Below, piece after piece: positions 5,432 through 45,113 of a DNA stretch of 64,000 nucleotides; the stretch's first letter is position 1; each line of letters begins with the position of its first letter. The notes below the pieces were generated by a model, which saw only the letters and a program-made list of their open reading frames with translations, had not been told where the DNA came from and ran no database searches. The translations under genes were made by a program, and so were the position numbers. This DNA is from a virus (Duplodnaviria; Caudoviricetes), in the IMG/VR virus record IMGVR_UViG_3300033068_001989, positions 96,001 through 160,000 of that record, one strand, 5' to 3'.

Positions 5432-7162
5432 TTATGCTAAACCACCAGCAGGTACGTTAACATAGAATGTTAAGTACATAGTTTCAGGTAAGAAACCAGC
5501 TTCTACTAATGCATATCTAGATTTAACTGCGATCTTAGGTGACATTGTACCTTCAGAGATTGTCTGAATAGACTCTGCCATCATGTAAGGCATGAATTTT
5601 AATCCTGGTTCGTCATCACCACCTTTTCTTCCAATTAATACTCTCGTATCGTTGTAGTTCATGTTTTGATCTACATATACTGTCATACCAGCAAGAGAAC
5701 CTACAGGGTATAAAGTACCGTTATTTTGAGTTAATGTGTTAGAGAACGGTGCGAAAGTGAACTGAGAAATATCTTGAAGTGCACTTGCTACTGCAGCGTT
5801 AGTAACGATGAAGTTAGCAGGACCTCTTCTACCTCTATTAGCTACTACGTTTGCAGCTGCAAGGATTCTAGAGAATAATCTTCTTTGAAGAGTTGATAAG
5901 TTCTCATATCCACCTGAAGCAGGACCAGCAGGGATTGGCATAGTAACGTTAGCGTCTACTTTATTAATATAAGCAGCAGTTGTACTAGCACCACCGTTTA
6001 TAATAAGGTTTAAGTTTAAGTTTTGTTGTTCAACAGAGTTGAATTGAACGTGGTTAGACCAACCTAAAGCGAATGCTCTTGCTAAGATGTGTTTGTTAAT
6101 AGCTTGAGATACTTCATTAACCAATGCGTTCTCGATCATTGAGATAACGTCGATACCGAATTGTTTGTTAAGATCTTGTATTTGCTCTGTTGTAACAGAA
6201 GCAGCTACTTGGAATGTCTCAGCTTCAACGAATTTAGTGAAAGTTGAAAGACCCATTGAGTTGAAGTATGTAGACTCACCAACACCTCTTAACATTGGGT
6301 TGTAAGTTTTAGTACCATCAACATAAGGACCTTGCCAAGCTTGATCATTAGCGAAACCAGCACCAGAGAATCCTTGGATATGATCTTCTAAAGCTTTAAC
6401 TAATTGAGCAGCATAACCGTTTGGTGAGTAAGAAGCTCCAGTTGATAAAGCAGGACCAACAATACCAAAGTTTGTAAGTGCAGTTGGAGTACCGTTGATA
6501 TAGTTATTGATGTTTGATCCAGCAGCCATACCAGTTACTTGGAAGATTGGGAAACCATCAATTCTAGAAAGACCTACGAATGTTAAGTTTAATGTTCCAA
6601 TATTACCAGTAGCACCAACAGTTGGGAATGAAGCTGCAGTAGCACCTGTAGCACCTGTAGCACCAGATCCGGTATAAACTGGGAATTTAATCATTGTTGG
6701 AGCAGTAGCTAACTGATCAGCAGCTGTTGTAGCAGCACCAGCACCAAGTTTACCACCAGCATAAACGTAATCTAAGTAAGATAAGATACCAGTAGGACCT
6801 GACATAGGGATAACTGGAACGATATCAAAACCGATAGTTTTTGCAGCAACTTGAATTGCTAAAGGCAATAATGATGGGAATTTATCTCCAGATCCTTGCC
6901 ATTGTGTGTTATAGAAACCAGCATTAGCTTGAGTAGATAATGATGTACCACCCATATTCATTCCTGGATAAGCAGGAGGCGCAACGTTACCCATACCATT
7001 AACAACACCTAAAGAGTTATAAGCTCCAGCAGACTCGTTTAATGAGTGATAGTGGCAATATTTAGTTAACCACCCTTTTTTTCCTTCATCTGTGATACCA
7101 GCTTTACTTTCAATAAGCGGTGACCATGTATCGTAGATTTCTTGTTCGTTAATCAATTTCAT
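5432..7162 (-). CDS. gp23: Major capsid protein (T4 gp23-like)
   Basis: Motifs IGFDIVPVIPMSGPTG, TTEQIQDL, NRGRRGPANFIV, GLKFMPY, PKIAVKSRYAL; follows the prohead protease. Confidence 0.93.
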   Translation of the reverse strand: MKLINEQEIYDTWSPLIESKAGITDEGKKGWLTKYCHYHSLNESAGAYNSLGVVNGMGNVAPPAYPGMNMGGTSLSTQANAGFYNTQWQGSGDKFPSLLPLAIQVAAKTIGFDIVPVIPMSGPTGILSYLDYVYAGGKLGAGAATTAADQLATAPTMIKFPVYTGSGATGATGATAASFPTVGATGNIGTLNLTFVGLSRIDGFPIFQVTGMAAGSNINNYINGTPTALTNFGIVGPALSTGASYSPNGYAAQLVKALEDHIQGFSGAGFANDQAWQGPYVDGTKTYNPMLRGVGESTYFNSMGLSTFTKFVEAETFQVAASVTTEQIQDLNKQFGIDVISMIENALVNEVSQAINKHILARAFALGWSNHVQFNSVEQQNLNLNLIINGGASTTAAYINKVDANVTMPIPAGPASGGYENLSTLQRRLFSRILAAANVVANRGRRGPANFIVTNAAVASALQDISQFTFAPFSNTLTQNNGTLYPVGSLAGMTVYVDQNMNYNDTRVLIGRKGGDDEPGLKFMPYMMAESIQTISEGTMSPKIAVKSRYALVEAGFLPETMYLTFYVNVPAGGLA

Positions 7163-20078: not shown

Positions 20079-20113
20079 CACAAAAAAAAAGGATATTTTA
20101 AAAATATCCTTTT
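20079..20113 (-). terminator. Intrinsic terminator after portal genes
   Basis: AAAAGGATATTT/AAATATCCTTTT stem, U-tract, GTG. Confidence 0.75.
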
Positions 20114-20116
20114 AGA

Positions 20117-21754
20117 TTATAAAGTTACCTGTGGTGTCTCCTCCGCCCCTTCCGCTGGAGGGGTTTCTTTAGATTCTTCTGGCGTAGTTTCTCCCTCAGG
20201 AGGAGCGGAAGCTGCTCCAGCTTTTTCTTCAGCCTTTTTATATTGTTCGTTAAGCTTTAATTGATCCGGTGACATACCAATGAATCTTTGTATAAGGAAG
20301 TCGTTATCGAAATATGGAACATCCTCCTCTCCTGCCTTAACCTTAAGGTCAGCAAGCGAAGTTACAAATTCACTTTTCTTTTTAAGATTTGTCATTTCAA
20401 CCTGATCTTCAAACTCAAGATCTCTATTAAAATCAAGTCCTATATTAGCTTTAAAGTTTCTATCCTTAGCCAATTCTGGATAATCCAGACACATCTGTAT
20501 ATAAAGAGGTTTTACTAATATCTCCTGGAATATGGATCTAAGTCTTCTTAGAAATTTTTCGAATCTTATTTCGTCTCTCTCCAATTGATCTATCGCTATC
20601 TGATAATTAGCAGGTGTTCCGTTCTTTGCAGCAAATCTTGCATATGGTATTTTCGAATCCATTTTTAACTTATTGAAGAAATAAAGAACGTTATCCATAA
20701 CGTTAAAATCAGGACCGGAAGGATTTAGTGAAGATATCTCAGGTGAAACTCCGTTTTGTTCAGGAAATAAATAATTTTTATAAAACTGAACTTTAGGTCT
20801 ACCGTTTACTGTAAGTTCGCCCGAAGAATCATTAATACTGATTTCCTCCTTGTAATTCGACATAAGCTGTCCTAAGGTTTGCATTGCTTTTTGGGGTGAC
20901 TGAGTACCAATAGGAATGATGAATTTCATTCTATAGCTAGCATTCATAACATTCCATATAACTCTAGAATTCTCCATGATTCTAAGTATATTGTATGATC
21001 TAACTAATCTTTCAACATAACTTGTCCTTGATATTGTATTTCCCTTAGCATAAGATATGTAAATTATCTGTTCATTGGTAAGTTTCCTAAACATCTGGGG
21101 ATTATTAGGATACTGAAGCCAAAATTGCTTATATTCATTTTCACCAACCTTCTCAACAACAGGTTCAAGAGATACTGCATCCAATTCTTTAAATCCTATT
21201 ATTTCCTTACCTTTGCTATCATATATTATTTCAAACGCTAGAAATCCATCTATAATAAACTGTCTAAAATATTGCCAACCCAAAACAGTATTTTGAAATT
21301 GAAATATGTTATACAATCTATTGAAATGTGAACTTATCTTTTCTTTTATATTATCTTTAAGATCTATATTAGAAAAAGATGGCTGAGCAAAATAATTTCT
21401 ATCATCATAAACTATTGCTTCGTCAGTAATGATATCCAATATGAATTCAATCTCACCATTTATTGAGAACTTTCTAAGATAATTTCTCTTCTCAATATAC
21501 GATTTATCAAAATATGCTATATATTTTCTTACTTTAGTATCATGATACGATGCAGTCCACTGAAAAGCACTATCCTTAGTATAACCAGTGCCCTCCTGAT
21601 TGAAAAAAGCTCCCTCAGTTCTACCGATGGCCTGAGAGTTTCTAACAATCATATCATCGTATTGCATACCAAATTTGGATATATTACCCAAATTCTTCAA
21701 TATGTTACCCAATGCCGCTTGATTGGGTTTTAAAAAGTCTAAAAATCCTGCCAT
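20117..21754 (-). CDS. gp20: Portal protein (T4 gp20-like), paralogue 2
   Basis: DEAIV, FRQFIIDG, SYVERL, NYLFP, KIPYARF, RDEIRFEKFLRRLRSIF motifs. Confidence 0.9.
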   Translation of the reverse strand: MAGFLDFLKPNQAALGNILKNLGNISKFGMQYDDMIVRNSQAIGRTEGAFFNQEGTGYTKDSAFQWTASYHDTKVRKYIAYFDKSYIEKRNYLRKFSINGEIEFILDIITDEAIVYDDRNYFAQPSFSNIDLKDNIKEKISSHFNRLYNIFQFQNTVLGWQYFRQFIIDGFLAFEIIYDSKGKEIIGFKELDAVSLEPVVEKVGENEYKQFWLQYPNNPQMFRKLTNEQIIYISYAKGNTISRTSYVERLVRSYNILRIMENSRVIWNVMNASYRMKFIIPIGTQSPQKAMQTLGQLMSNYKEEISINDSSGELTVNGRPKVQFYKNYLFPEQNGVSPEISSLNPSGPDFNVMDNVLYFFNKLKMDSKIPYARFAAKNGTPANYQIAIDQLERDEIRFEKFLRRLRSIFQEILVKPLYIQMCLDYPELAKDRNFKANIGLDFNRDLEFEDQVEMTNLKKKSEFVTSLADLKVKAGEEDVPYFDNDFLIQRFIGMSPDQLKLNEQYKKAEEKAGAASAPPEGETTPEESKETPPAEGAEETPQVTL

Positions 21755-21758
21755 GTTA

Positions 21759-23375
21759 TTATAGTGTTACTTGTGGTGCTTCTTCCCCGCCTTCTTCTTT
21801 CTTAGACTCTTTCCCTCCTGCTGCCTTTTCAGTTTTCGCTTTCTCCTTCGCCTTTCTTTCTTTGGCCTCTTTGTTAGCTATTATATCCTGTTTAGACATA
21901 CCTAAATACTCCTCTATAAGAAATGCATTGGAAAAAAATGGTTTACCGTCATCATTCATTAGACCACCAAGACTAGAGATTGTTTCCTTTCTCTGTACCA
22001 TCTTACCTATTTCCTGATTTTCTTTAAACGGATTGTCAGACCAGTAATTAAGTCCCAATTGACTTTTGAATAGAAAATCTTTTTCAAGATATGGATATTT
22101 ATTAACCATCTGTAGCCACATAGGTTTAACTAATATTTCCTGGAATACGGATCTAAGTCTAGATATAAATTTATAGAATCTTATTTCCTCTTTATCTAAT
22201 CCCTCTGCTCCATTTGAATATGGTGATGTGCTACCTCCGTCAGGATTATGAAACCTCGATGGTGGAACCTTAGATTCCAATATAAATTTATCAAAGAAAT
22301 ATGTTAATGGAGCAGGGTCATTCAAATTTGGTCCCTCTGTATTTATTGGCTCGATAGTCGGTGTTCCGTTAACACCAGAAGGCATAAGATAATTCTTATA
22401 GAACTGTATCTTTGGTCTACCGTCAACAGTAAGCTCGCCGCTTTCATCATTTAACTGTATGTCTTCCTTATATACGCTCATAAGTTCCCCCAATGTTTGC
22501 ATACCTTTTTGTTGAGATTTTGTACCTATAGGAACAGTCATTTTAAGTTTAAATGAAGCATTCATAACAGACCATATAACTCTAGTATATTCTATTATCC
22601 TCAATATATTATAAGGTCTTATAAGTCTCTCGATATAACTAACCCTTGATATTGAATTACCCTTGGCGTATGATATGTATATTATTTGGGGATCATATAG
22701 TACCCTTTTCTTCTTTGGGTCCTGAGGGTATTGTGTCCAAGTACTAACAAAGCTTCCATCCAATTGCTTCTCCACACTAGGAATAAGAGTTATCGGATCA
22801 AGTTCCTTAAAACCGACTATCTTCTTACCACTGTCATCATATACGATTTCAAATGCTAGAAATCCGTCTATAATAAACTGTCTAAAATATTGCCATGCTG
22901 TTATATCATCAGAAAATCCCCATATATCATACAGATTCTTATATACATCATATAGCTCATCCTTTACCTTCTCGTTTACGTCAGTAAGATCTATAAAATC
23001 CGGATATGCAAAAAAATTAGCGGGATCGTAAGTTATTGCTTCATCACATATTGTATCAAGAACCCATTCAACCTCAGGATTAAGAGAGAACATTCTTAAA
23101 AATTCTCGCTTACCTTTATAATCCTTATCGAAGTATCCTATGAATTGTCTGGATGTTACATCTTGCTTAGCAAGAGCCCATAGCATGCTTTCGTCCTCTA
23201 CGTTCGATTTATTCTTATTAAGAAAAGCTGCTTCGGTTACACCGACAGCCTGTGAATTTCTTATAACCATGTCATCATACTTCATACCAAAAGTACTAAG
23301 CTTTTTGACCGACTCACGTATTCTCTGTATTACCGGAGATTCCGATGGTTTATTATTATCTACAAAACCTGCCAT
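21759..23375 (-). CDS. gp20: Portal protein (T4 gp20-like), paralogue 1
   Basis: DEAIT, FRQFIIDG, SYIERL, NYLMP, KVPPSRF, EEIRFYKFISRLRSVF motifs. Confidence 0.9.
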   Translation of the reverse strand: MAGFVDNNKPSESPVIQRIRESVKKLSTFGMKYDDMVIRNSQAVGVTEAAFLNKNKSNVEDESMLWALAKQDVTSRQFIGYFDKDYKGKREFLRMFSLNPEVEWVLDTICDEAITYDPANFFAYPDFIDLTDVNEKVKDELYDVYKNLYDIWGFSDDITAWQYFRQFIIDGFLAFEIVYDDSGKKIVGFKELDPITLIPSVEKQLDGSFVSTWTQYPQDPKKKRVLYDPQIIYISYAKGNSISRVSYIERLIRPYNILRIIEYTRVIWSVMNASFKLKMTVPIGTKSQQKGMQTLGELMSVYKEDIQLNDESGELTVDGRPKIQFYKNYLMPSGVNGTPTIEPINTEGPNLNDPAPLTYFFDKFILESKVPPSRFHNPDGGSTSPYSNGAEGLDKEEIRFYKFISRLRSVFQEILVKPMWLQMVNKYPYLEKDFLFKSQLGLNYWSDNPFKENQEIGKMVQRKETISSLGGLMNDDGKPFFSNAFLIEEYLGMSKQDIIANKEAKERKAKEKAKTEKAAGGKESKKEEGGEEAPQVTL

Positions 23376-23396
23376 TTAATTTATTTTTTTGATATT

Positions 23397-23404
23397 TATA
23401 TATC
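23397..23404 (-). promoter_or_regulatory. Putative late promoter GATATATA (context GATATATAAATA also contains T4 TATAAATA)
   Basis: About 22 nt upstream of the portal start. Confidence 0.7.
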
Positions 23405-23414
23405 GAGATTAATG

Positions 23415-23900
23415 CTATCTACTCTTGAATAAAAAATTTTCGTCAATAACTCCAAATCTATATCCTCTCTTATCTGCCCATTCCTTAGCTGCTTTGAATT
23501 TTGCTTGGTTGGTTATCCATATTTGCATATTTCTGTTATATGACTTAAGCTTAGCTAAAGTCATAACACCTTCCATTATGGGTTTAATCGTTTGTTTTTC
23601 TGGTTTTATCTCTATTATCCATTCCTGTTCACTATTATCTTCCTTTAGGACCTTTATATAAAAATCAACATTATAGTTATGGTCTTTTTTATCAAGAGGA
23701 TTGTAATATGGTATAACAACCGGTTCAGAGCTCCATTTTAATATGGATTCATTTGTGTCACAGTATGTACAAAACCTATATTCCCAGGAAGATCTATAGA
23801 TAATATTATGTATATCACCTATATACTTATCAGGATTCTTAGGATCATATTTACCAGATTTATATTCACCATTAGGTTTTATCTTCTTGATATCTGGCAT
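23415..23900 (-). CDS. gp4: Head completion nuclease (T4 gp4-like, TnsA fold)
   Basis: GKYDPKNPDKYIGD, YRSSWE, WSSE, IPY, VDF, IEIKP, NQAKFKAA. Confidence 0.9.
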   Translation of the reverse strand: MPDIKKIKPNGEYKSGKYDPKNPDKYIGDIHNIIYRSSWEYRFCTYCDTNESILKWSSEPVVIPYYNPLDKKDHNYNVDFYIKVLKEDNSEQEWIIEIKPEKQTIKPIMEGVMTLAKLKSYNRNMQIWITNQAKFKAAKEWADKRGYRFGVIDENFLFKSR

Positions 23901-23903
23901 AGT

Positions 23904-24263
23904 CTAGATGTTATATGAATTATCATCACCAGTTATATAACTAAATGGGATCGTTACCGGATTTTTTGGTGGATGTAATTTCTTCCATCCTTTGGCAAAT
24001 CCATGCTTAGCTATCTGTGTAAAATAAGCAAATGGATTGTTAGATTTTTCCGGATTGAATCTATTCCAATATTTACATAAATCTTCCATAGCAAAAGCCA
24101 TGCAATCCTCTCTATCCTCAGGATCCTTGTATGACATTTTCTTAGATATACCTTCAATCATAAGATTGAACATATCTATAGTTGCTGGCGTTAATTTTCC
24201 AGCATTCTTCGATTCAATAACAGCTGCCATTAGCTCGCTATTCTTTACATAAACTTTTGCCAT
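23904..24263 (-). CDS. gp55: Late transcription sigma factor (T4 gp55-like), short form
   Basis: YVKNSEL, KYWNRFNPEKSNNPFAYFTQI motifs characteristic of gp55. Confidence 0.85.
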   Translation of the reverse strand: MAKVYVKNSELMAAVIESKNAGKLTPATIDMFNLMIEGISKKMSYKDPEDREDCMAFAMEDLCKYWNRFNPEKSNNPFAYFTQIAKHGFAKGWKKLHPPKNPVTIPFSYITGDDNSYNI

Positions 24264-24366: not shown

Positions 24367-24528
24367 TTATTGTTTATCTTCACCGGAGTCATCGTTTTCT
24401 TCGTCGTTAAGATCCTCCGTTTTACCGGTAGGTGCCTTTGCGAATTTACCCTTCATGGATTGAATAAAAGATTTACCAGGTTTATTTTGATTTTCACCTT
24501 TAGGTGCGAAATAGAAGTTGCGACTTAG
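24367..24528 (-). CDS. -1 frame C-terminal extension (53 aa) of the 853-aa protein
   Basis: After the A9-C tract the -1 frame reads LSRNFYFAPKGENQNKPGKSFIQSMKGKFAKAPTGKTEDLNDEENDDSGEDKQ*, with the same xxxAP repeat as the upstream ORF. Confidence 0.6.
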   Translation of the reverse strand, partial: LSRNFYFAPKGENQNKPGKSFIQSMKGKFAKAPTGKTEDLNDEENDDSGEDKQ

Positions 24529-27086
24529 TTTTTTTTTACTTCCTCGGATTCATCAATATTGTATCCAGATTTATAAACTTTAGAATCCTTAGCATCGGAT
24601 GCATCGAATTTTAAAACCCCATTCTTGTCACCAGGAGCAGAACTAAGATTATTTTTCCCTAATTCCTTACCGTTTTGTTTATTACTATTACCAGGTGCTT
24701 CCGCTAGATTTTTCTTAGTGTTAGCATTTTTACCTTTATTCATTTCATCGTTACCAGGAGCATCAGAAAAATCAGGGTCGGTAGAACCGTTTGTTAATTT
24801 AGATTTACCTTTTTTATCTGGTGCATCAGCTAATGATTTATTTTTTACATTAACCTGTGGAGCTTTTTTATCGTTACCTGGAGCTTTAGAATAATTAGTT
24901 TTAGGTGTTGAATTCTTTAAATCTGCCTTACCCTCATTCATTGTTCTATTATATCCATGTAAAGAATCACCGTCCATGTCTATCTTTTCGTTATCGTTAC
25001 CTGGGGCTTTAGAAAATCCATGCATTCCAGCAAGTTTTTTTAACATTTTCTTTTGCTCGCTTTCAGGTAAATCCGACTTATTGAGGTTATTAGATTCTTT
25101 AACCTCACCAGAATCGTCATTGTTATCATCAGCAGCTTCAGCATTATCATCAGCAGCTTTATTTAGTGCTTCGTCAAGATCAGCAAGCTCGTTTATCTGA
25201 TGATCTGCAGTTTTTCCACTATCTAAAAGAATAGTGTATCTACCAGATGATCCATCAATAGATATTACTTTACCTGTTTCTCCTGATTCTTTAACTTTAA
25301 CAAAAGATCCTATATTAAATTTCTGATCCTCGAATAAATCAGAATTTGGTAATAATGTTATATTCTCTTCTACTTTCTGTATTTCGATATTTATCTGATT
25401 CCATTTAGTTTTAAGAGTTTGTAGTTCTTTCTCCAACATTGAATGAGCAACATTTATCTCCTTTGAATTCTTATATAAAGGATTAGATTCCATAAGTGTT
25501 TCAACCTTATTAATCTCACCTTCAATTTTAGAAATATTTTCAAGAATCTTATTTCTATCATTAATCATAACAGATTTAATTTTAGATTCTCCATCAAGAA
25601 ATTCTGTTAAACCTTCTGAAATATCATATCTCATAAAGTTCTTAACAAGTGATACTGCTTGAGATCCATTAACTTCATATAGCGAATTTTCTCTCATAGC
25701 CTCATTTATTTTCTGAAGATATATCTGTCCGTTCCATTTGAAAAGGTTAATAGCAAGGCCTTCATATACATTAGATGTTATAGATTTAGCAAAATCCAAT
25801 TCAACAACATTAGAATAGTTTGTATAAAGTGTCATAATATCACCTACAACCTCAGATTCATTAACACCAAAGTATGACGAAGATTCCAATCCTATTATTT
25901 TAGCTAATCCAATAGAATCACCAAATCTAAGTTTATCCTTACCTAGATAAACAGATACATTATCGTTCTCTTCAACTAATGTAACTATTTTTTTACCGAG
26001 CTTAATTGAAATACCAGATTCGTTTATTTTAACGTGAGATTTCATCGTCGTTAGTGCAAGTCTTAGGTAATTTTCAGAAAGATTAGAATATTCGGATTTT
26101 GGTAATTTTCTTAGTGTATCTGATGTTGCTTCAAATATACATCCACCAATGAAGAAGAATGTTCTTCCACCCTCGAAAAGTACAGGAGAATAAACTTTAG
26201 AAACAGTAGATTCACCCTGAGCATTAACAGGAATTTCTAATTTTCTGCTATCTGTGCTTTCCTGTATATTAAGAAAATTTATAAGATTTTTAATAACTGG
26301 ATTGAAGCTAAATTTAGAAATATTTCTTACCAATAATCCATTAGATTTATTTTCAGAAACCAACCAAGAATTAAGTGTTTCTGAAAGTTCAGAATAGAAA
26401 GAAGCGCTTCCGCTATTCTTAATAGATTCCAAGACATTAGCAACCTCAATTTCTCTAGAGAATGATTTTGCTTTCTCTTTCAGTTCCTCTGCAATAGGTG
26501 CTATTGAAGAATCCCAAGAGAATGAAGCAAGTTCATTAACAAAGTTATTTATAAGTGAAAATTCAGGAACATTTTTATTATCCAATAGATATTGATACTG
26601 CTCGCATACCATTTTTGCTTTAGGGTAAGTATAAATGGATGACTCCTTTATCTTCTCTATAGCATTTCTAATACCAAGATTTTTTACTCCTTGGGATTCG
26701 ATAAACGATTTTGCAGCGGGATCAGAAGTTTCAAGATTTGCTATACTCTCATATAAAGAATTCTCATTATCTTTATTTTCTTTTGGCTTATCTGAATAAG
26801 ATCCAGAATTGCTTGATGTAGATTTTCCTAAACCTCCCCAAGATTCCATAAGTGAAGCAGCAGCTTTTTTAGAGATCTCTGACTCTTCTCTTTTTATTAA
26901 ATCCATATGATTTTGTATATTATTTCCAGCATTATCTAAATCCAGGGATGCATTATGTTCATTAATTAAAACTGTCATGCTTTCTTTAGAAACTGAACCT
27001 CCATTAAGGAAGCTTTCACATAAAGCTTTTACCTCAGGTGATTTTGTTATTTCTTTTACTTTTTTAACTTGATCTATAAAGTCCAT
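24525..27086 (-). CDS. Large putative head/virion protein with SH3/KOW-like domain and C-terminal [FLY]xxAPG repeats
   Basis: 853 aa; late promoter motif upstream; many [ILMV]-x-E sites; FNIGSFVKVKESGETGKV; FSKAPG/YSKAPG/FSDAPG/LAEAPG/LSSAPG repeats. Confidence 0.55.
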   Translation of the reverse strand: MDFIDQVKKVKEITKSPEVKALCESFLNGGSVSKESMTVLINEHNASLDLDNAGNNIQNHMDLIKREESEISKKAAASLMESWGGLGKSTSSNSGSYSDKPKENKDNENSLYESIANLETSDPAAKSFIESQGVKNLGIRNAIEKIKESSIYTYPKAKMVCEQYQYLLDNKNVPEFSLINNFVNELASFSWDSSIAPIAEELKEKAKSFSREIEVANVLESIKNSGSASFYSELSETLNSWLVSENKSNGLLVRNISKFSFNPVIKNLINFLNIQESTDSRKLEIPVNAQGESTVSKVYSPVLFEGGRTFFFIGGCIFEATSDTLRKLPKSEYSNLSENYLRLALTTMKSHVKINESGISIKLGKKIVTLVEENDNVSVYLGKDKLRFGDSIGLAKIIGLESSSYFGVNESEVVGDIMTLYTNYSNVVELDFAKSITSNVYEGLAINLFKWNGQIYLQKINEAMRENSLYEVNGSQAVSLVKNFMRYDISEGLTEFLDGESKIKSVMINDRNKILENISKIEGEINKVETLMESNPLYKNSKEINVAHSMLEKELQTLKTKWNQINIEIQKVEENITLLPNSDLFEDQKFNIGSFVKVKESGETGKVISIDGSSGRYTILLDSGKTADHQINELADLDEALNKAADDNAEAADDNNDDSGEVKESNNLNKSDLPESEQKKMLKKLAGMHGFSKAPGNDNEKIDMDGDSLHGYNRTMNEGKADLKNSTPKTNYSKAPGNDKKAPQVNVKNKSLADAPDKKGKSKLTNGSTDPDFSDAPGNDEMNKGKNANTKKNLAEAPGNSNKQNGKELGKNNLSSAPGDKNGVLKFDASDAKDSKVYKSGYNIDESEEVKKN

Positions 27087-35399: not shown

Positions 35400-35975
35400 T
35401 TACATGAATAAATCCTCCCAGTAATCACAAACCCATGATGTTCTTATTGTATAGATAGCAGGTGTCTCATAATCAAGATCCATCGCATTTATAGGTTCGC
35501 TTATAAAGCATGAAGGTATTCTTATTCTTCTAAACACATCACCTTGTTTATTAAATATCGAAATAAGTATAGAACCAACATAATCATTTTTAAGTCCCAT
35601 CGCTCCAGTTAATGGATTATAAATTAAATCGGACCATTGTCTAAGTATTTTATATAGCTCCATCGAGTTTGAATTATTAAGATTTACTTCAAATTCCATA
35701 GAAAGGTTCATGTCACTTGTTTGTGGTTCACCACCAGCATATCTTCTGGTAGCAAATTTATAATTTTGATTGACTGTCTGAGCAGGTGCTATATCAACAG
35801 CTAATCCGGTTATTGATTTAACTTGTTGTGTTAATATACTTTCACCTTGGAAAGTAGTACTAGCAGAAACAATAGCAGACGGTGGGGTTATCAGTACTTC
35901 AAACTGATTAAGAAACACCGGCTCGTAATTATTTATACCTGCAAGCGAATTTGTAAAATGTGGTAATCCAGCCAT
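35400..35975 (-). CDS. gp19: Tail tube protein (gp19-like), paralogue 2
   Basis: EPVFLNQFEV, RRYAG, LRQWSDLIYNPLTG, DYW; downstream of sheath. Confidence 0.82.
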   Translation of the reverse strand: MAGLPHFTNSLAGINNYEPVFLNQFEVLITPPSAIVSASTTFQGESILTQQVKSITGLAVDIAPAQTVNQNYKFATRRYAGGEPQTSDMNLSMEFEVNLNNSNSMELYKILRQWSDLIYNPLTGAMGLKNDYVGSILISIFNKQGDVFRRIRIPSCFISEPINAMDLDYETPAIYTIRTSWVCDYWEDLFM

Positions 35976-35989
35976 TTATCTTTTTTATT

Positions 35990-36544
35990 TTATAGAAATA
36001 AATCGTCCCAATAATCAACAGCAAATACCATATCATCTATTTTATATAGATCAGTACTGGTATAGTTTAGATTCATCGGTGATATAGGTTTAGTTGGGAA
36101 TGTATCCTTACATGTTATTCTTCGATAAACATCACCAGCTTTATTGAAAACAGAGATGATTATAGTTCCAGTATAGTCATTTTTAAGACCCATTGCACCT
36201 GTTAATGGATTATAGATCAAATCCGACCATTGTCTTAATGTTTTAAAAACGTACATTGAATTTGAATCATTAAGATTGACACTAAAAGTTATGCTAAGAT
36301 CCATGAAAGTATTTTCAGGTTTAGATCCAGCATAATTTCTTTTAGCAAATTTATATTTTTGCTGAACTGTACCTGGGTTTTTATCCAAGGAAAGTCCATT
36401 AACTTTACTTACGTGTTGTAATAGTATATTTCCTCCAGCTATAGCAGCCGGAGGTATTATTGTTACCTCAAATTGGTTTAAGTAAACAGGTTCATACTTG
36501 TTTACTGCAGATAACGAATTTTGATAATGTGATAGTCCTGCCAT
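35990..36544 (-). CDS. gp19: Tail tube protein (gp19-like), paralogue 1
   Basis: EPVYLNQFEV, RNYAG, LRQWSDLIYNPLTG, DYW; immediately after sheath. Confidence 0.82.
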   Translation of the reverse strand: MAGLSHYQNSLSAVNKYEPVYLNQFEVTIIPPAAIAGGNILLQHVSKVNGLSLDKNPGTVQQKYKFAKRNYAGSKPENTFMDLSITFSVNLNDSNSMYVFKTLRQWSDLIYNPLTGAMGLKNDYTGTIIISVFNKAGDVYRRITCKDTFPTKPISPMNLNYTSTDLYKIDDMVFAVDYWDDLFL

Positions 36545-42620: not shown

Positions 42621-45113
42621 TTATTTATTTCTTGCAAATTTTGGTATATTTAGCAAAGGTTTAGCGTTATCTATTATATGTGCTAGCTGAGAGTCTCTAA
42701 CTATGTTCTGATTAAGAACAGTTGACTGATTATCTATATCTATCATATTCTTAAATAATCTAACATTACTGATGTTTATTGGACCGGTAAAAATCTTATA
42801 TGAATTATTATCAGTACCGTAATATGGACTGAATTTATCAGTAACCAGACTCGAAGGTGCATTGAAAACTATATGATCAATAAACATTCTCGAATCCTCC
42901 TGTAGCTTACTCAATTTACTGGATTGATCAGGAGAGCTATTTGTTGGGTCATACGTTATTCCCCATATTATGGAAGATATTTGTTTATATACATTCGAGA
43001 AATTTATCACTATACCGTACCATTCGTCTATGGAAGGTACGAATTGTAGAGTAGTATTTATAATGAGATCATTAAACCTAACAACTAAACTTCCGGTTTC
43101 CAGAAAAGTATTAGTTAATTCGTCAGTTACACCAGAATGTATAATGTCCGCTCTAAATCCCTTAATATCACCATTCTGATCCTCATATAATCCACTGATT
43201 AAATTTCTAGATTGTGCCTTCTGCATTCTCCATGTAACCGGTCCTTGTGAGAAATTCTCCGACTTATTAATAACTTTGAATCTATATTCATCTATGATGC
43301 TATCAACCTGATATCCACCACTATGAGTGGAATCACCTTTTATTGCTACATATCCTTCTGGGTTGGATTGATAACTTTCCCATCTCTCAAGATTATGTTT
43401 TCTTGGATATGAATTAAAAACAAGAAAGTCGCTATCATACGATTCCAAAGCTATGCTTATAACCGGATACGGTCTTTTCATCAGCTGTTGGTTATTATAA
43501 AGATTCTTTATATTAAACCATGCTGTAAATGCTAACTCCTCACCTATAGCAATTTTAGGAAGCAATTTATAACGAATAGCCTCTCTATATTGCTTGGTCG
43601 CATATATAAAATCAGAGTCATCAACAAATGATCCATAAAGATCATAATAATCATTAAATACTATAGTCCAGTTATTATTTAGGTCATATCCTATTATTGA
43701 TAGATCCTTATAAATATATGATCTTATAGGATCCTGCGACATTTGAGTTATCGTGGTTGCATATTGCTGAGGATTTGTTATTTTAAGCTCCTCATTTTGT
43801 ACCTCTGCTCCAAACAGATCACTAGTAGTAAGACTTATACCATCAAGCTCCTCCTTATGTGCAGGATCTCTAAAGTAAGTATTACTTTTAGGATTATATT
43901 TTTTAAGCTCAATCTTAAAATAAACGGGAGCGTTCATAAAATCTCTAAACAAATAGGTTGAGTTTATTTCATATATTCTATTTGTTATTGGGAAGTATAT
44001 AATATCTCTTTTTCTAGGTTGAGATCCTCTACCAAATATCGACTCGAAATATCTTTTGTCCATCTGAACTTCAAAAGGATCATCATAATTTAACCCAAAT
44101 GGATCGAAATTTATTTTATTATCAGGAAACTGATTCTGATTAACCATTAATTTTACACATTTTTCAGAAACAACATTAAATAATGTATATTCCCTAAGAA
44201 TAACGTCTCTACCTCTAGCCTGCGGTTGAACAGAATAATAATTAGCATCAAGACCAAACATCTTATTGACCATTAAACTAAGATCCTGATATATGTTTAA
44301 TGCTTTGTTAACAGCATAGGGTTTGAATGTAAATCCACAATCAGAAAAAATAACAGGTCTATTCGATGTTTCGGGTGAACATATAGGCGAAGGTCTACTT
44401 TGTATTTTTTCAGGTGTCGGACCGAAATCAAGATCCAGATCAAAGCTAACTATAACTACTGATGGGTCTATGGGTTCATCTGTATTATAAATTATCCCAC
44501 CATCAGGACCTATAAGAACTGAGGTGAATCTAAATTCTGGGTAGAATTTATTGGAAGGATCAAGATCAATTGAGAAAACATCAGAGAAATTATTAGTTAG
44601 ACCATTAAGAGCTGTTCCAACATTAGTCCATAAGGACCAGGTTTTTCCATCTATGCTATATCTAAAATCTATTGATATATCATTAGAATCCAGAATTGAT
44701 CCATTATTATTAGAATAAATAGTATCAATTATCCAGCCATTAAACTTAGTAACGTTCTCAAAAGGTCTATCCCATGTTAATACCCTGTAACTACCTATAT
44801 AGGTGAAGTTTAATGCACTTTCGAGCTGCTCCATTCTTAAACCATAATACTCCGGGGTTTCGCATGGCATATACATCGTATTGCCGTTGACTATAATCTC
44901 GTGAAATCCACCGCAGCCTAATTGTTTAGCTCTAGCTCTCGCACCATTTTCGGTACTGAATATATTATCAACCGATGATTCCAGTACTTTTTCAGTATTC
45001 TGAAGTCCATCGTGATATGCATACCTAGGATCCGATATATCGTATTGTTCTCCCTCGGTATTATATACTGGCGTACCATTTTTTGGTAATCTATTCTCTG
45101 GATAAAAGCTCAT
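42621..45113 (-). CDS. Neck protein gp14-like multidomain protein
   Basis: Central FGLDANYY...FDPFGL...PRKRDIIYFPITNRIYEI resembles gp14; N-terminal LGCGGFH...YMPC module; C-terminal LamG-like beta domain. Confidence 0.6.
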   Translation of the reverse strand: MSFYPENRLPKNGTPVYNTEGEQYDISDPRYAYHDGLQNTEKVLESSVDNIFSTENGARARAKQLGCGGFHEIIVNGNTMYMPCETPEYYGLRMEQLESALNFTYIGSYRVLTWDRPFENVTKFNGWIIDTIYSNNNGSILDSNDISIDFRYSIDGKTWSLWTNVGTALNGLTNNFSDVFSIDLDPSNKFYPEFRFTSVLIGPDGGIIYNTDEPIDPSVVIVSFDLDLDFGPTPEKIQSRPSPICSPETSNRPVIFSDCGFTFKPYAVNKALNIYQDLSLMVNKMFGLDANYYSVQPQARGRDVILREYTLFNVVSEKCVKLMVNQNQFPDNKINFDPFGLNYDDPFEVQMDKRYFESIFGRGSQPRKRDIIYFPITNRIYEINSTYLFRDFMNAPVYFKIELKKYNPKSNTYFRDPAHKEELDGISLTTSDLFGAEVQNEELKITNPQQYATTITQMSQDPIRSYIYKDLSIIGYDLNNNWTIVFNDYYDLYGSFVDDSDFIYATKQYREAIRYKLLPKIAIGEELAFTAWFNIKNLYNNQQLMKRPYPVISIALESYDSDFLVFNSYPRKHNLERWESYQSNPEGYVAIKGDSTHSGGYQVDSIIDEYRFKVINKSENFSQGPVTWRMQKAQSRNLISGLYEDQNGDIKGFRADIIHSGVTDELTNTFLETGSLVVRFNDLIINTTLQFVPSIDEWYGIVINFSNVYKQISSIIWGITYDPTNSSPDQSSKLSKLQEDSRMFIDHIVFNAPSSLVTDKFSPYYGTDNNSYKIFTGPINISNVRLFKNMIDIDNQSTVLNQNIVRDSQLAHIIDNAKPLLNIPKFARNK

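Follow-up and report, generated by a model that had tools for sequence, protein, structure and literature searches.

How many kinds of subunit does a tailed phage use to build its portal? A homododecameric portal encoded by a single-copy gene is the hallmark gateway for DNA in tailed phages and herpesviruses; to our knowledge, every characterised tailed phage, T4 included, builds it from the product of one gene. The question is raised by a 64,000-nucleotide (nt) stretch of viral DNA, positions 96,001 to 160,000 of the IMG/VR virus record IMGVR_UViG_3300033068_001989 (hereafter the window), in which two complete portal genes lie side by side. The source record is 207,751 bp long and is estimated by CheckV to be 73% complete. 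A first-pass annotation of the window had described two tandem, full-length and clearly diverged portal paralogues, and had proposed that both are maintained and co-expressed, either in a hetero-oligomeric portal or with one of them at a second portal-like special vertex. We find an old and faithfully kept gene duplication, and we consider below how its two products might be used.

The two genes are adjacent open reading frames (ORFs) on the minus strand, with the coordinates that the first-pass annotation had given them. Copy A (P0002; 538 amino acids, aa), the upstream paralogue, occupies 21759–23375, and copy B (P0001; 545 aa), the downstream paralogue and the nearer of the two to single-copy portals, occupies 20117–21754. 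Between the A stop codon and the B ATG is a 4-nt spacer (21755–21758, minus strand), which is too short to hold a promoter. Against the Pfam model PF07230 (Portal_T4), for which the curated cut-off is 22.9 bits, A scores 192.2 bits over profile positions 9–430 of 433 and B scores 228 bits over positions 4–431. Both match the PHROG 213 portal protein family (E = 3e-54 for A and 5e-68 for B) as well as the solved T4 gp20 chains 3JA7, 6UZC and 9LU6, B at E = 2e-19 and A at E = 2.5e-10. The wing, stem, clip, tunnel-loop and crown segments of both copies can all be aligned to the T4 gp20 boundaries, and no domain appears to be absent. These matches confirm that A and B, as predicted from their genes, are full-length T4-type portal proteins. 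They are 49% identical across 505 aa and have in common a MAGF start and a PQVTL end, and in these respects the initial description of the pair was accurate. AlphaFold2 monomer models from 43-row alignments are poor, with a mean predicted local distance difference test (pLDDT) of 50.8 for A and 52.0 for B and values below 50 in the stem and clip. A two-chain prediction of A (residues 30–505) with B (residues 30–505) from paired 43-row alignments gave scores of 0.04 and 0.02, which are evidence neither for nor against an interaction.

The pair is not peculiar to this record. No close relative of the window at the DNA level is present in the GenBank phage set, and the nearest records by protein are the huge uncultured phages LR756500–LR756504 and the Lak megaphages, at 34–45% identity. 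Relatives of copy B are encoded in 140 IMG/VR stretches, and we compared 80 of these loci (66–96% identity, on contigs of up to 434 kb) by tblastn with both proteins. An A-like gene lies upstream and a B-like gene downstream in 78 of the 80, that is, in every relative of sufficient length; the other two contigs end 20–30 nt before the B-like gene. Orthologues are 66–99% identical, whereas A and B are always 48–55% identical to each other. Five complete or near-complete relatives (430, 434, 349, 319 and 271 kb, the first two with direct terminal repeats) have exactly two Portal_T4 matches each. The same five have a single full-length (~575-aa) gp23-type capsid gene each, together with a shorter gp23-like ORF of ~300 aa in four of them, and in the window's partial 207-kb record the genes for the gp23-type capsid protein, the large terminase, the head protease and the sheath are each present once, with no paralogue of any of these. 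The rule of one portal gene per genome is thus broken in the window's record, in the five complete or near-complete relatives and in all 78 informative contigs. An assembly or chimera artefact can be dismissed as the source of the tandem arrangement, which recurs on 78 independent contigs from many samples with copies that differ at half of their residues. We conclude that these phages almost certainly represent a clade of uncultured 270–434 kb phages that keeps both portal copies, in the same order and in a tight unit.

When did the two copies arise? A maximum-likelihood tree of 131 portals resolves A (61 rows) and B (64 rows) as two clades with 100% support each and unites them with 99% support; the stems are 0.46 for A and 0.45 for B, and the internal topologies of the two clades mirror each other. 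Outside the joint clade lie the single portals of LR756500, LR756501, LR756502, LR756504, phage PAU and phage PTm1, and one full-length portal is present both in other huge phages and in six LR756500-like loci. A HMMER scan of 1.84 billion cluster representatives returned 1303 relatives, and A and B are still monophyletic after the best of these are added to the tree. Because the A and B clades are fully supported and nested among single-copy portals, the tree shows a single duplication of the portal gene, which took place in situ and long ago. The two-copy state extends to deeper branches than the 80 loci, because a more distant A-like protein, P0005 (48% identical to A and 42% to B, with 15 A states against 8 B states at 27 diagnostic sites), is followed on its 5-kb contig (L106) by the start of a second portal gene (MAGF...). 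A different kind of additional portal sequence occurs at 142329–142826 of the 735-kb phage LR756501.1 (locus L095), where an extra 342-aa ORF matches only portal residues 78–266, at 44% identity; by its extent this is either a portal fragment or a wing-domain-only paralogue.

Both copies have been held under strong constraint since they separated. The median ratio of non-synonymous to synonymous substitution (omega; Nei–Gojobori method, 12 unsaturated genome pairs) comes to 0.022 in A and 0.018 in B. The two orthologue alignments (43 sequences each) do not differ in mean column identity, which is 74%, and the copies are also equally conserved domain by domain. The two copies are under equally strong purifying selection and neither is decaying. 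With one ancient duplication, both genes in every sufficiently long relative and an omega of about 0.02 for each, the proposal that both copies are maintained is upheld, and neither shows relaxed selection.

To locate the differences between A and B we mapped their alignment with the domain boundaries that Sun et al. 2015 (PMC4493910) give for T4 gp20. The consensus sequences of the two copies are 65% identical in the clip, 64% in the wing, 59% in the stem, 51% in the crown, 46% in the N-terminal segment, 44% in the channel loop and 27% in the tunnel loop. A column was counted as a fixed difference if each copy conserves it to at least 90% but in a different state. There are 27 such columns, of which the stem, clip, channel loop and tunnel loop contain 19. 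This corresponds to 19 of 80 conserved columns in that axial core against 8 of 104 elsewhere, an enrichment with a Fisher odds ratio of 3.7 (p = 0.003). In T4 gp20 the axial core holds the only main-chain contacts between subunits, in a clip beta-sheet that neighbours share; it also includes the loops that face the DNA, the tunnel loops through which neighbours touch, and the site where terminase and neck dock (PMC4493910).

Copy A is judged the more derived of the two, because outgroups carry the B state about twice as frequently as the A state at the diagnostic sites and because A scores ~35 bits below B against the family model in every genome checked. Co-variation between A and B columns outside the tail is confined to a few columns (e.g. 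residue 69 of both window proteins, and residue 178 of A with 177 of B), with too few independent events to interpret. Gene conversion along the body of the gene was considered and rejected, as the only stretches in which A and B reach at least 85% nucleotide identity are universally conserved motifs.

The organisation of the locus bears on whether the two proteins are made together. Copy B is followed by an intrinsic-terminator-like hairpin with a U run (20082–20113, minus strand; a 12-bp hairpin at 20113–20087), which closes the two-gene unit; its folding free energy is -9.9 kcal/mol with a z-score of -3.5, and none of 200 shuffled sequences folds as well. Upstream, a T4-late-promoter-like octamer, TATAAATA, lies at 23393–23400 on the minus strand, 17 nt before the A ATG. 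The case for this octamer as the late promoter of the portal pair is weak, because its count in the AT-rich window is at chance level (20 seen against 17.8 expected) and because the exact octamer is found upstream of A in just 6 of 58 non-redundant relatives, the closest ones only, and upstream of B in 3. The same two observations speak against a conserved late promoter. The suggestion that the pair lies between a late promoter motif and a terminator is therefore sound for the terminator and for the presence of the octamer, but doubtful for the octamer as a promoter. The spacer between A and B is 1–23 nt in all 58 non-redundant genomes, too short for B to have a promoter of its own. From this tight spacing and the single terminator we infer that A and B are transcribed jointly and translated roughly jointly; the proposed co-expression of the copies is accordingly plausible, with this operon architecture as its sole basis. 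We saw no recognisable Shine-Dalgarno sequence upstream of either portal gene (23376–23392 and 21755–21790, minus strand), and the leaders are A-rich, which may hint at a host with non-Shine-Dalgarno initiation, such as a member of the Bacteroidota.

The two proteins end alike. Each has a low-complexity linker of Glu, Gly, Pro and Lys followed by a terminal x-[V/I/F]-T-[L/I/F]; in the window the A tip is APQVTL (21762–21779, minus strand), preceded by a Lys/Glu/Gly-rich linker, and the B tip is TPQVTL (20120–20137, minus strand), preceded by a Pro/Glu/Ala-rich linker. T4 gp20 ends in ...QEQEDF and the single-copy portals of huge phages end in ...NFDF, ...EFEF or ...APTF, and because these ends are built alike, an acidic or Gly-rich stretch with a hydrophobic last residue is the ancestral layout. 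Within genomes the A and B tips co-vary: PQVTL is paired with PQVTL in the window's subclade, and elsewhere PEVTL with PEVTL, PAVTL with PAVTL, PAVTI with PAVTI, EAVTL with EAVTL, and ETATL with DTATL. In some genomes the similarity of A and B extends at the nucleotide level over the last 60–90 nt (63–65 of 90 positions match, against ~45 of 90 in the window), a sign that short tracts at the 3' ends of these genes have undergone gene conversion. The tip has been lost by A in two lineages and by B in two others, but by both in none of the 58 genomes. This pattern fits one shared internal partner with partial redundancy of the two tails, although the events are too few for statistics, and such redundancy makes more sense for two proteins that are parts of one assembly. 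The idea that the shared tail is a common docking motif gains from the co-variation and from the similar ends of gp20 and the single-copy portals, but is tempered by gene conversion, which explains part of the sameness, and by the finding that one copy can do without its tip.

The portal is not the only part of the DNA channel that is doubled. The window encodes two tandem tail-tube paralogues on the minus strand, one of 184 aa at 35990–36544 and one of 191 aa at 35400–35975, which are 56% identical. Two tail-tube copies are likewise present in all four complete two-portal relatives that were checked, whereas LR756500, its relative G006, LR756501, LR756502 and LR756504 have one copy each. A small tree of tube proteins places the two copies in separate clades (96% and 99% support), which group together at 92% and are sister to the single-copy tube of LR756500 and G006. 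This indicates that portal and tail tube, consecutive ring-forming components of the path taken by the DNA, were duplicated on one and the same stem lineage and that both pairs have been kept. A doubled portal together with a doubled tube suggests, but does not prove, a DNA channel composed of two kinds of subunit.

What, then, do two portal proteins do in one phage? We favour the interpretation that A and B form a mixed portal ring, and give it about an even chance of being correct. The portal gene was duplicated in place, and the two copies have stayed complete and under equal constraint; their products would be made together and would co-assemble in one mixed ring, possibly alternating (A6B6), at a single portal vertex. 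Both copies keep the parts that would touch the capsid, the terminase or neck and the internal partner of the C-terminal tip, and they have become fixed as different in the axial core of stem, clip and tunnel loop, where neighbouring subunits and DNA would meet. We favour a mixed ring because the proteins appear to be produced jointly, there is a single set of head-assembly genes, both copies keep all interaction surfaces, among them a tip that evolves in concert, and the fixed differences lie at subunit contacts. One head assembly line fits because each of the five complete or near-complete relatives has one full-length gp23-type capsid gene and the window's terminase and protease genes are single. 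Co-expressed paralogues of a homomeric ring protein co-assemble at first, and mostly remain heteromeric as long as their interfaces do not diverge. Several considerations weigh on the other side. We know of no heteromeric portal in any tailed phage or herpesvirus, and what we infer about co-assembly, stoichiometry and incorporation into virions comes from the sequences of uncultured phages. The fixed differences consist mostly of conservative exchanges (D/E, K/R, I/V, F/Y), which alone are no proof of complementary interfaces, and gene conversion, instead of selection by a shared partner, accounts for part of the co-variation of the tips. Equal constraint on all domains is, moreover, also expected of two alternative complete portals.

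This last point leads to the most serious competing explanation, in which A and B form two separate homododecamers, either as alternative portals in two virion subpopulations or as a portal with a second ring stacked on it or placed elsewhere. The 49% identity and the fixed differences in the inter-subunit core could sort the subunits into homomers, and the tail tube, doubled in the same clade, might be taken as a sign of two matched sets. Two rings are harder to reconcile with a full-length gp23-type capsid gene that is single in every complete relative checked, with the single terminase, sheath and protease genes of the window, and with the production of both proteins from one tight operon; it would also be odd, if each ring docks alone, that the tip is lost by one copy and never by both, and no tailed phage is known to us with two portal-type rings. 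We consider two separate rings possible but rather unlikely, and for the second portal-like special vertex of the first-pass annotation we found no specific support, given one full-length capsid gene per complete relative checked and one large terminase in the window's partial record. The copies might also divide their labour in time. If one were the virion portal and the other, probably A, a non-virion assembly factor that, for example, nucleates the prohead or holds the true portal before assembly, this would suit the greater distance of A from the family model (~192 against ~228 bits), its weaker matches to the T4 gp20 structures and the roughly twofold excess of B states among outgroups at the 27 diagnostic sites; yet A keeps its clip, channel elements and wing as tightly as B, which is unexpected of a mere chaperone, and the two stem branches are similar (0.46 and 0.45), and we regard this scenario as improbable. 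Giant phages can carry surplus genes, and in this record tail fibres and homing endonucleases have paralogues too, so that one copy might be a redundant or dosage duplicate, or a decoy against host portal sensors, with no structural novelty. Twelve portal subunits suffice for each virion, however, which makes a dosage benefit implausible, and both copies remain intact, with an omega of ~0.02 down to ~66% orthologue identity and with 27 fixed paralogue-specific residues; we think it very improbable that the second copy is dispensable in this sense.

The mixed ring could be extended to the tail, such that an A6B6 portal and a two-subunit tail tube together make a DNA conduit of alternating paralogue pairs, although we hold this fuller picture to be doubtful. 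If it were true, the symmetry of the portal would drop from 12-fold to 6-fold, and the head-to-tail symmetry step would be taken inside the portal. An A6B6 ring would also be the first heteromeric portal of the tailed-phage and herpesvirus lineage; our full-text literature search found no description of duplicated, paralogous or heteromeric portals.

Comparison with known systems places the pair in the T4 family. As in T4 gp20 (PF07230; PDB 3JA7, 6UZC, 9MKB and 9LU6/9LU7), A and B match the family model end to end and finish in a flexible linker with a hydrophobic last residue, and as in T4 they lie within a module of gp4-, gp55- and gp44-like genes. They differ from gp20 in being two tandem paralogues fixed across a clade, with low identity to gp20 and a tunnel loop in which A and B are themselves only 27% identical in consensus. 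The nearest proteins by sequence are the single portals of LR756500, LR756501, LR756502, LR756504, the Lak megaphages and P0003, at 34–48% identity. The single-copy huge phages also have in common with the window the MAGF start (LR756500 and P0004) and the gene order sigma factor, gp4, gp2, portal and clamp loader, but unlike the two-portal clade they have one full-length portal and one tail-tube gene. A duplicated virion building block is not in itself foreign to T4-like phages, of which the major capsid protein gp23 and its vertex paralogue gp24 are the textbook example, with both copies kept in one structure. Unlike the subunits of the proposed mixed ring, gp23 and gp24 occupy different positions (hexamers and pentamers) and do not share one ring, and we know of no similar case for the portal. 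Closer in the proposed route, in which a ring subunit is duplicated and both co-expressed copies persist, are the eukaryotic CCT chaperonin, the proteasome alpha and beta rings and Mcm2-7, although these are cellular machines with a proven subunit order, whereas co-assembly of the portal proteins is here a proposal.

Models of capsid nucleation, of the 12-versus-5 symmetry mismatch between motor and capsid, and of DNA gating assume twelve identical portal subunits. A large and widespread clade that has long needed two portal subunits would be a natural experiment on these models, and the doubled tail tube would add to it. There is also a practical consequence, in that phages in metagenomes are counted and classified with portal genes as single-copy markers, so that a two-portal clade would be counted twice.

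Head-module synteny is common to the two-portal window and the single-copy relatives, and the order sigma factor, gp4, gp2, portal and clamp loader is that of P0003, the nearest single-copy lineage. Directly upstream of A is a gp4-like head completion gene (23415–23900, minus strand; PHROG 218, and the Pfam TnsA-like N-terminal domain PF08722), preceded by a gp55-like late sigma factor gene (23904–24263, minus strand; PHROG 234, E = 5e-15). Downstream of B are an exonuclease gene, a clamp-loader-like ORF whose position and length agree with those of the gp44-lid/AAA gene that follows the portal in the relative L107, and an ORF that we take to be DNA ligase-like by our own reading of its KYDGVR motif, with no match from any tool. 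Elsewhere the window contains one gp23-type capsid gene (5432–7162) and encodes the head protease, one large terminase, the sheath and the two tail-tube genes.

Between the gp4-like gene and portal A, 48 of 55 related loci have a gp2-like gene, which is present also in single-copy relatives. It has been lost in the window's subclade: it is missing from the corresponding position in the window (23376–23414) and in L004–L007, L009, L024 and L058, and a search of the complete 430- and 434-kb relatives (G001 and G002) detected no gp2 homologue at any position. Portal A as a replacement for the gp2 DNA-end protector is ruled out, since the 48 two-portal loci, along with L106, keep gp2 together with both portals.

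Further upstream, an 853-aa ORF (24525–27086, minus strand) has no family match; its C-terminal half contains short APGN/APGD-type repeats within Lys/Asn-rich low-complexity sequence. Relatives L106 and L107 have a large unannotated ORF at the same place upstream of the sigma factor gene. In the neck region, a gp14-like protein (42621–45113, minus strand) is 830 aa long, about three times the T4 size, with weak matches to PF11649 and PHROG 679 (head closure Hc2), and no gp13-type adaptor was recognised next to it with PHROGs or Pfam. Besides the portal and tail-tube pairs, the paralogues in the record comprise tail fibres, homing endonucleases and two pairs without a known function. Among these, three homing-endonuclease-like paralogues that are 58–65% identical lie outside the window in the same phage record (G000:C1), at 869–1543, 176205–176852 and 177127–177777.

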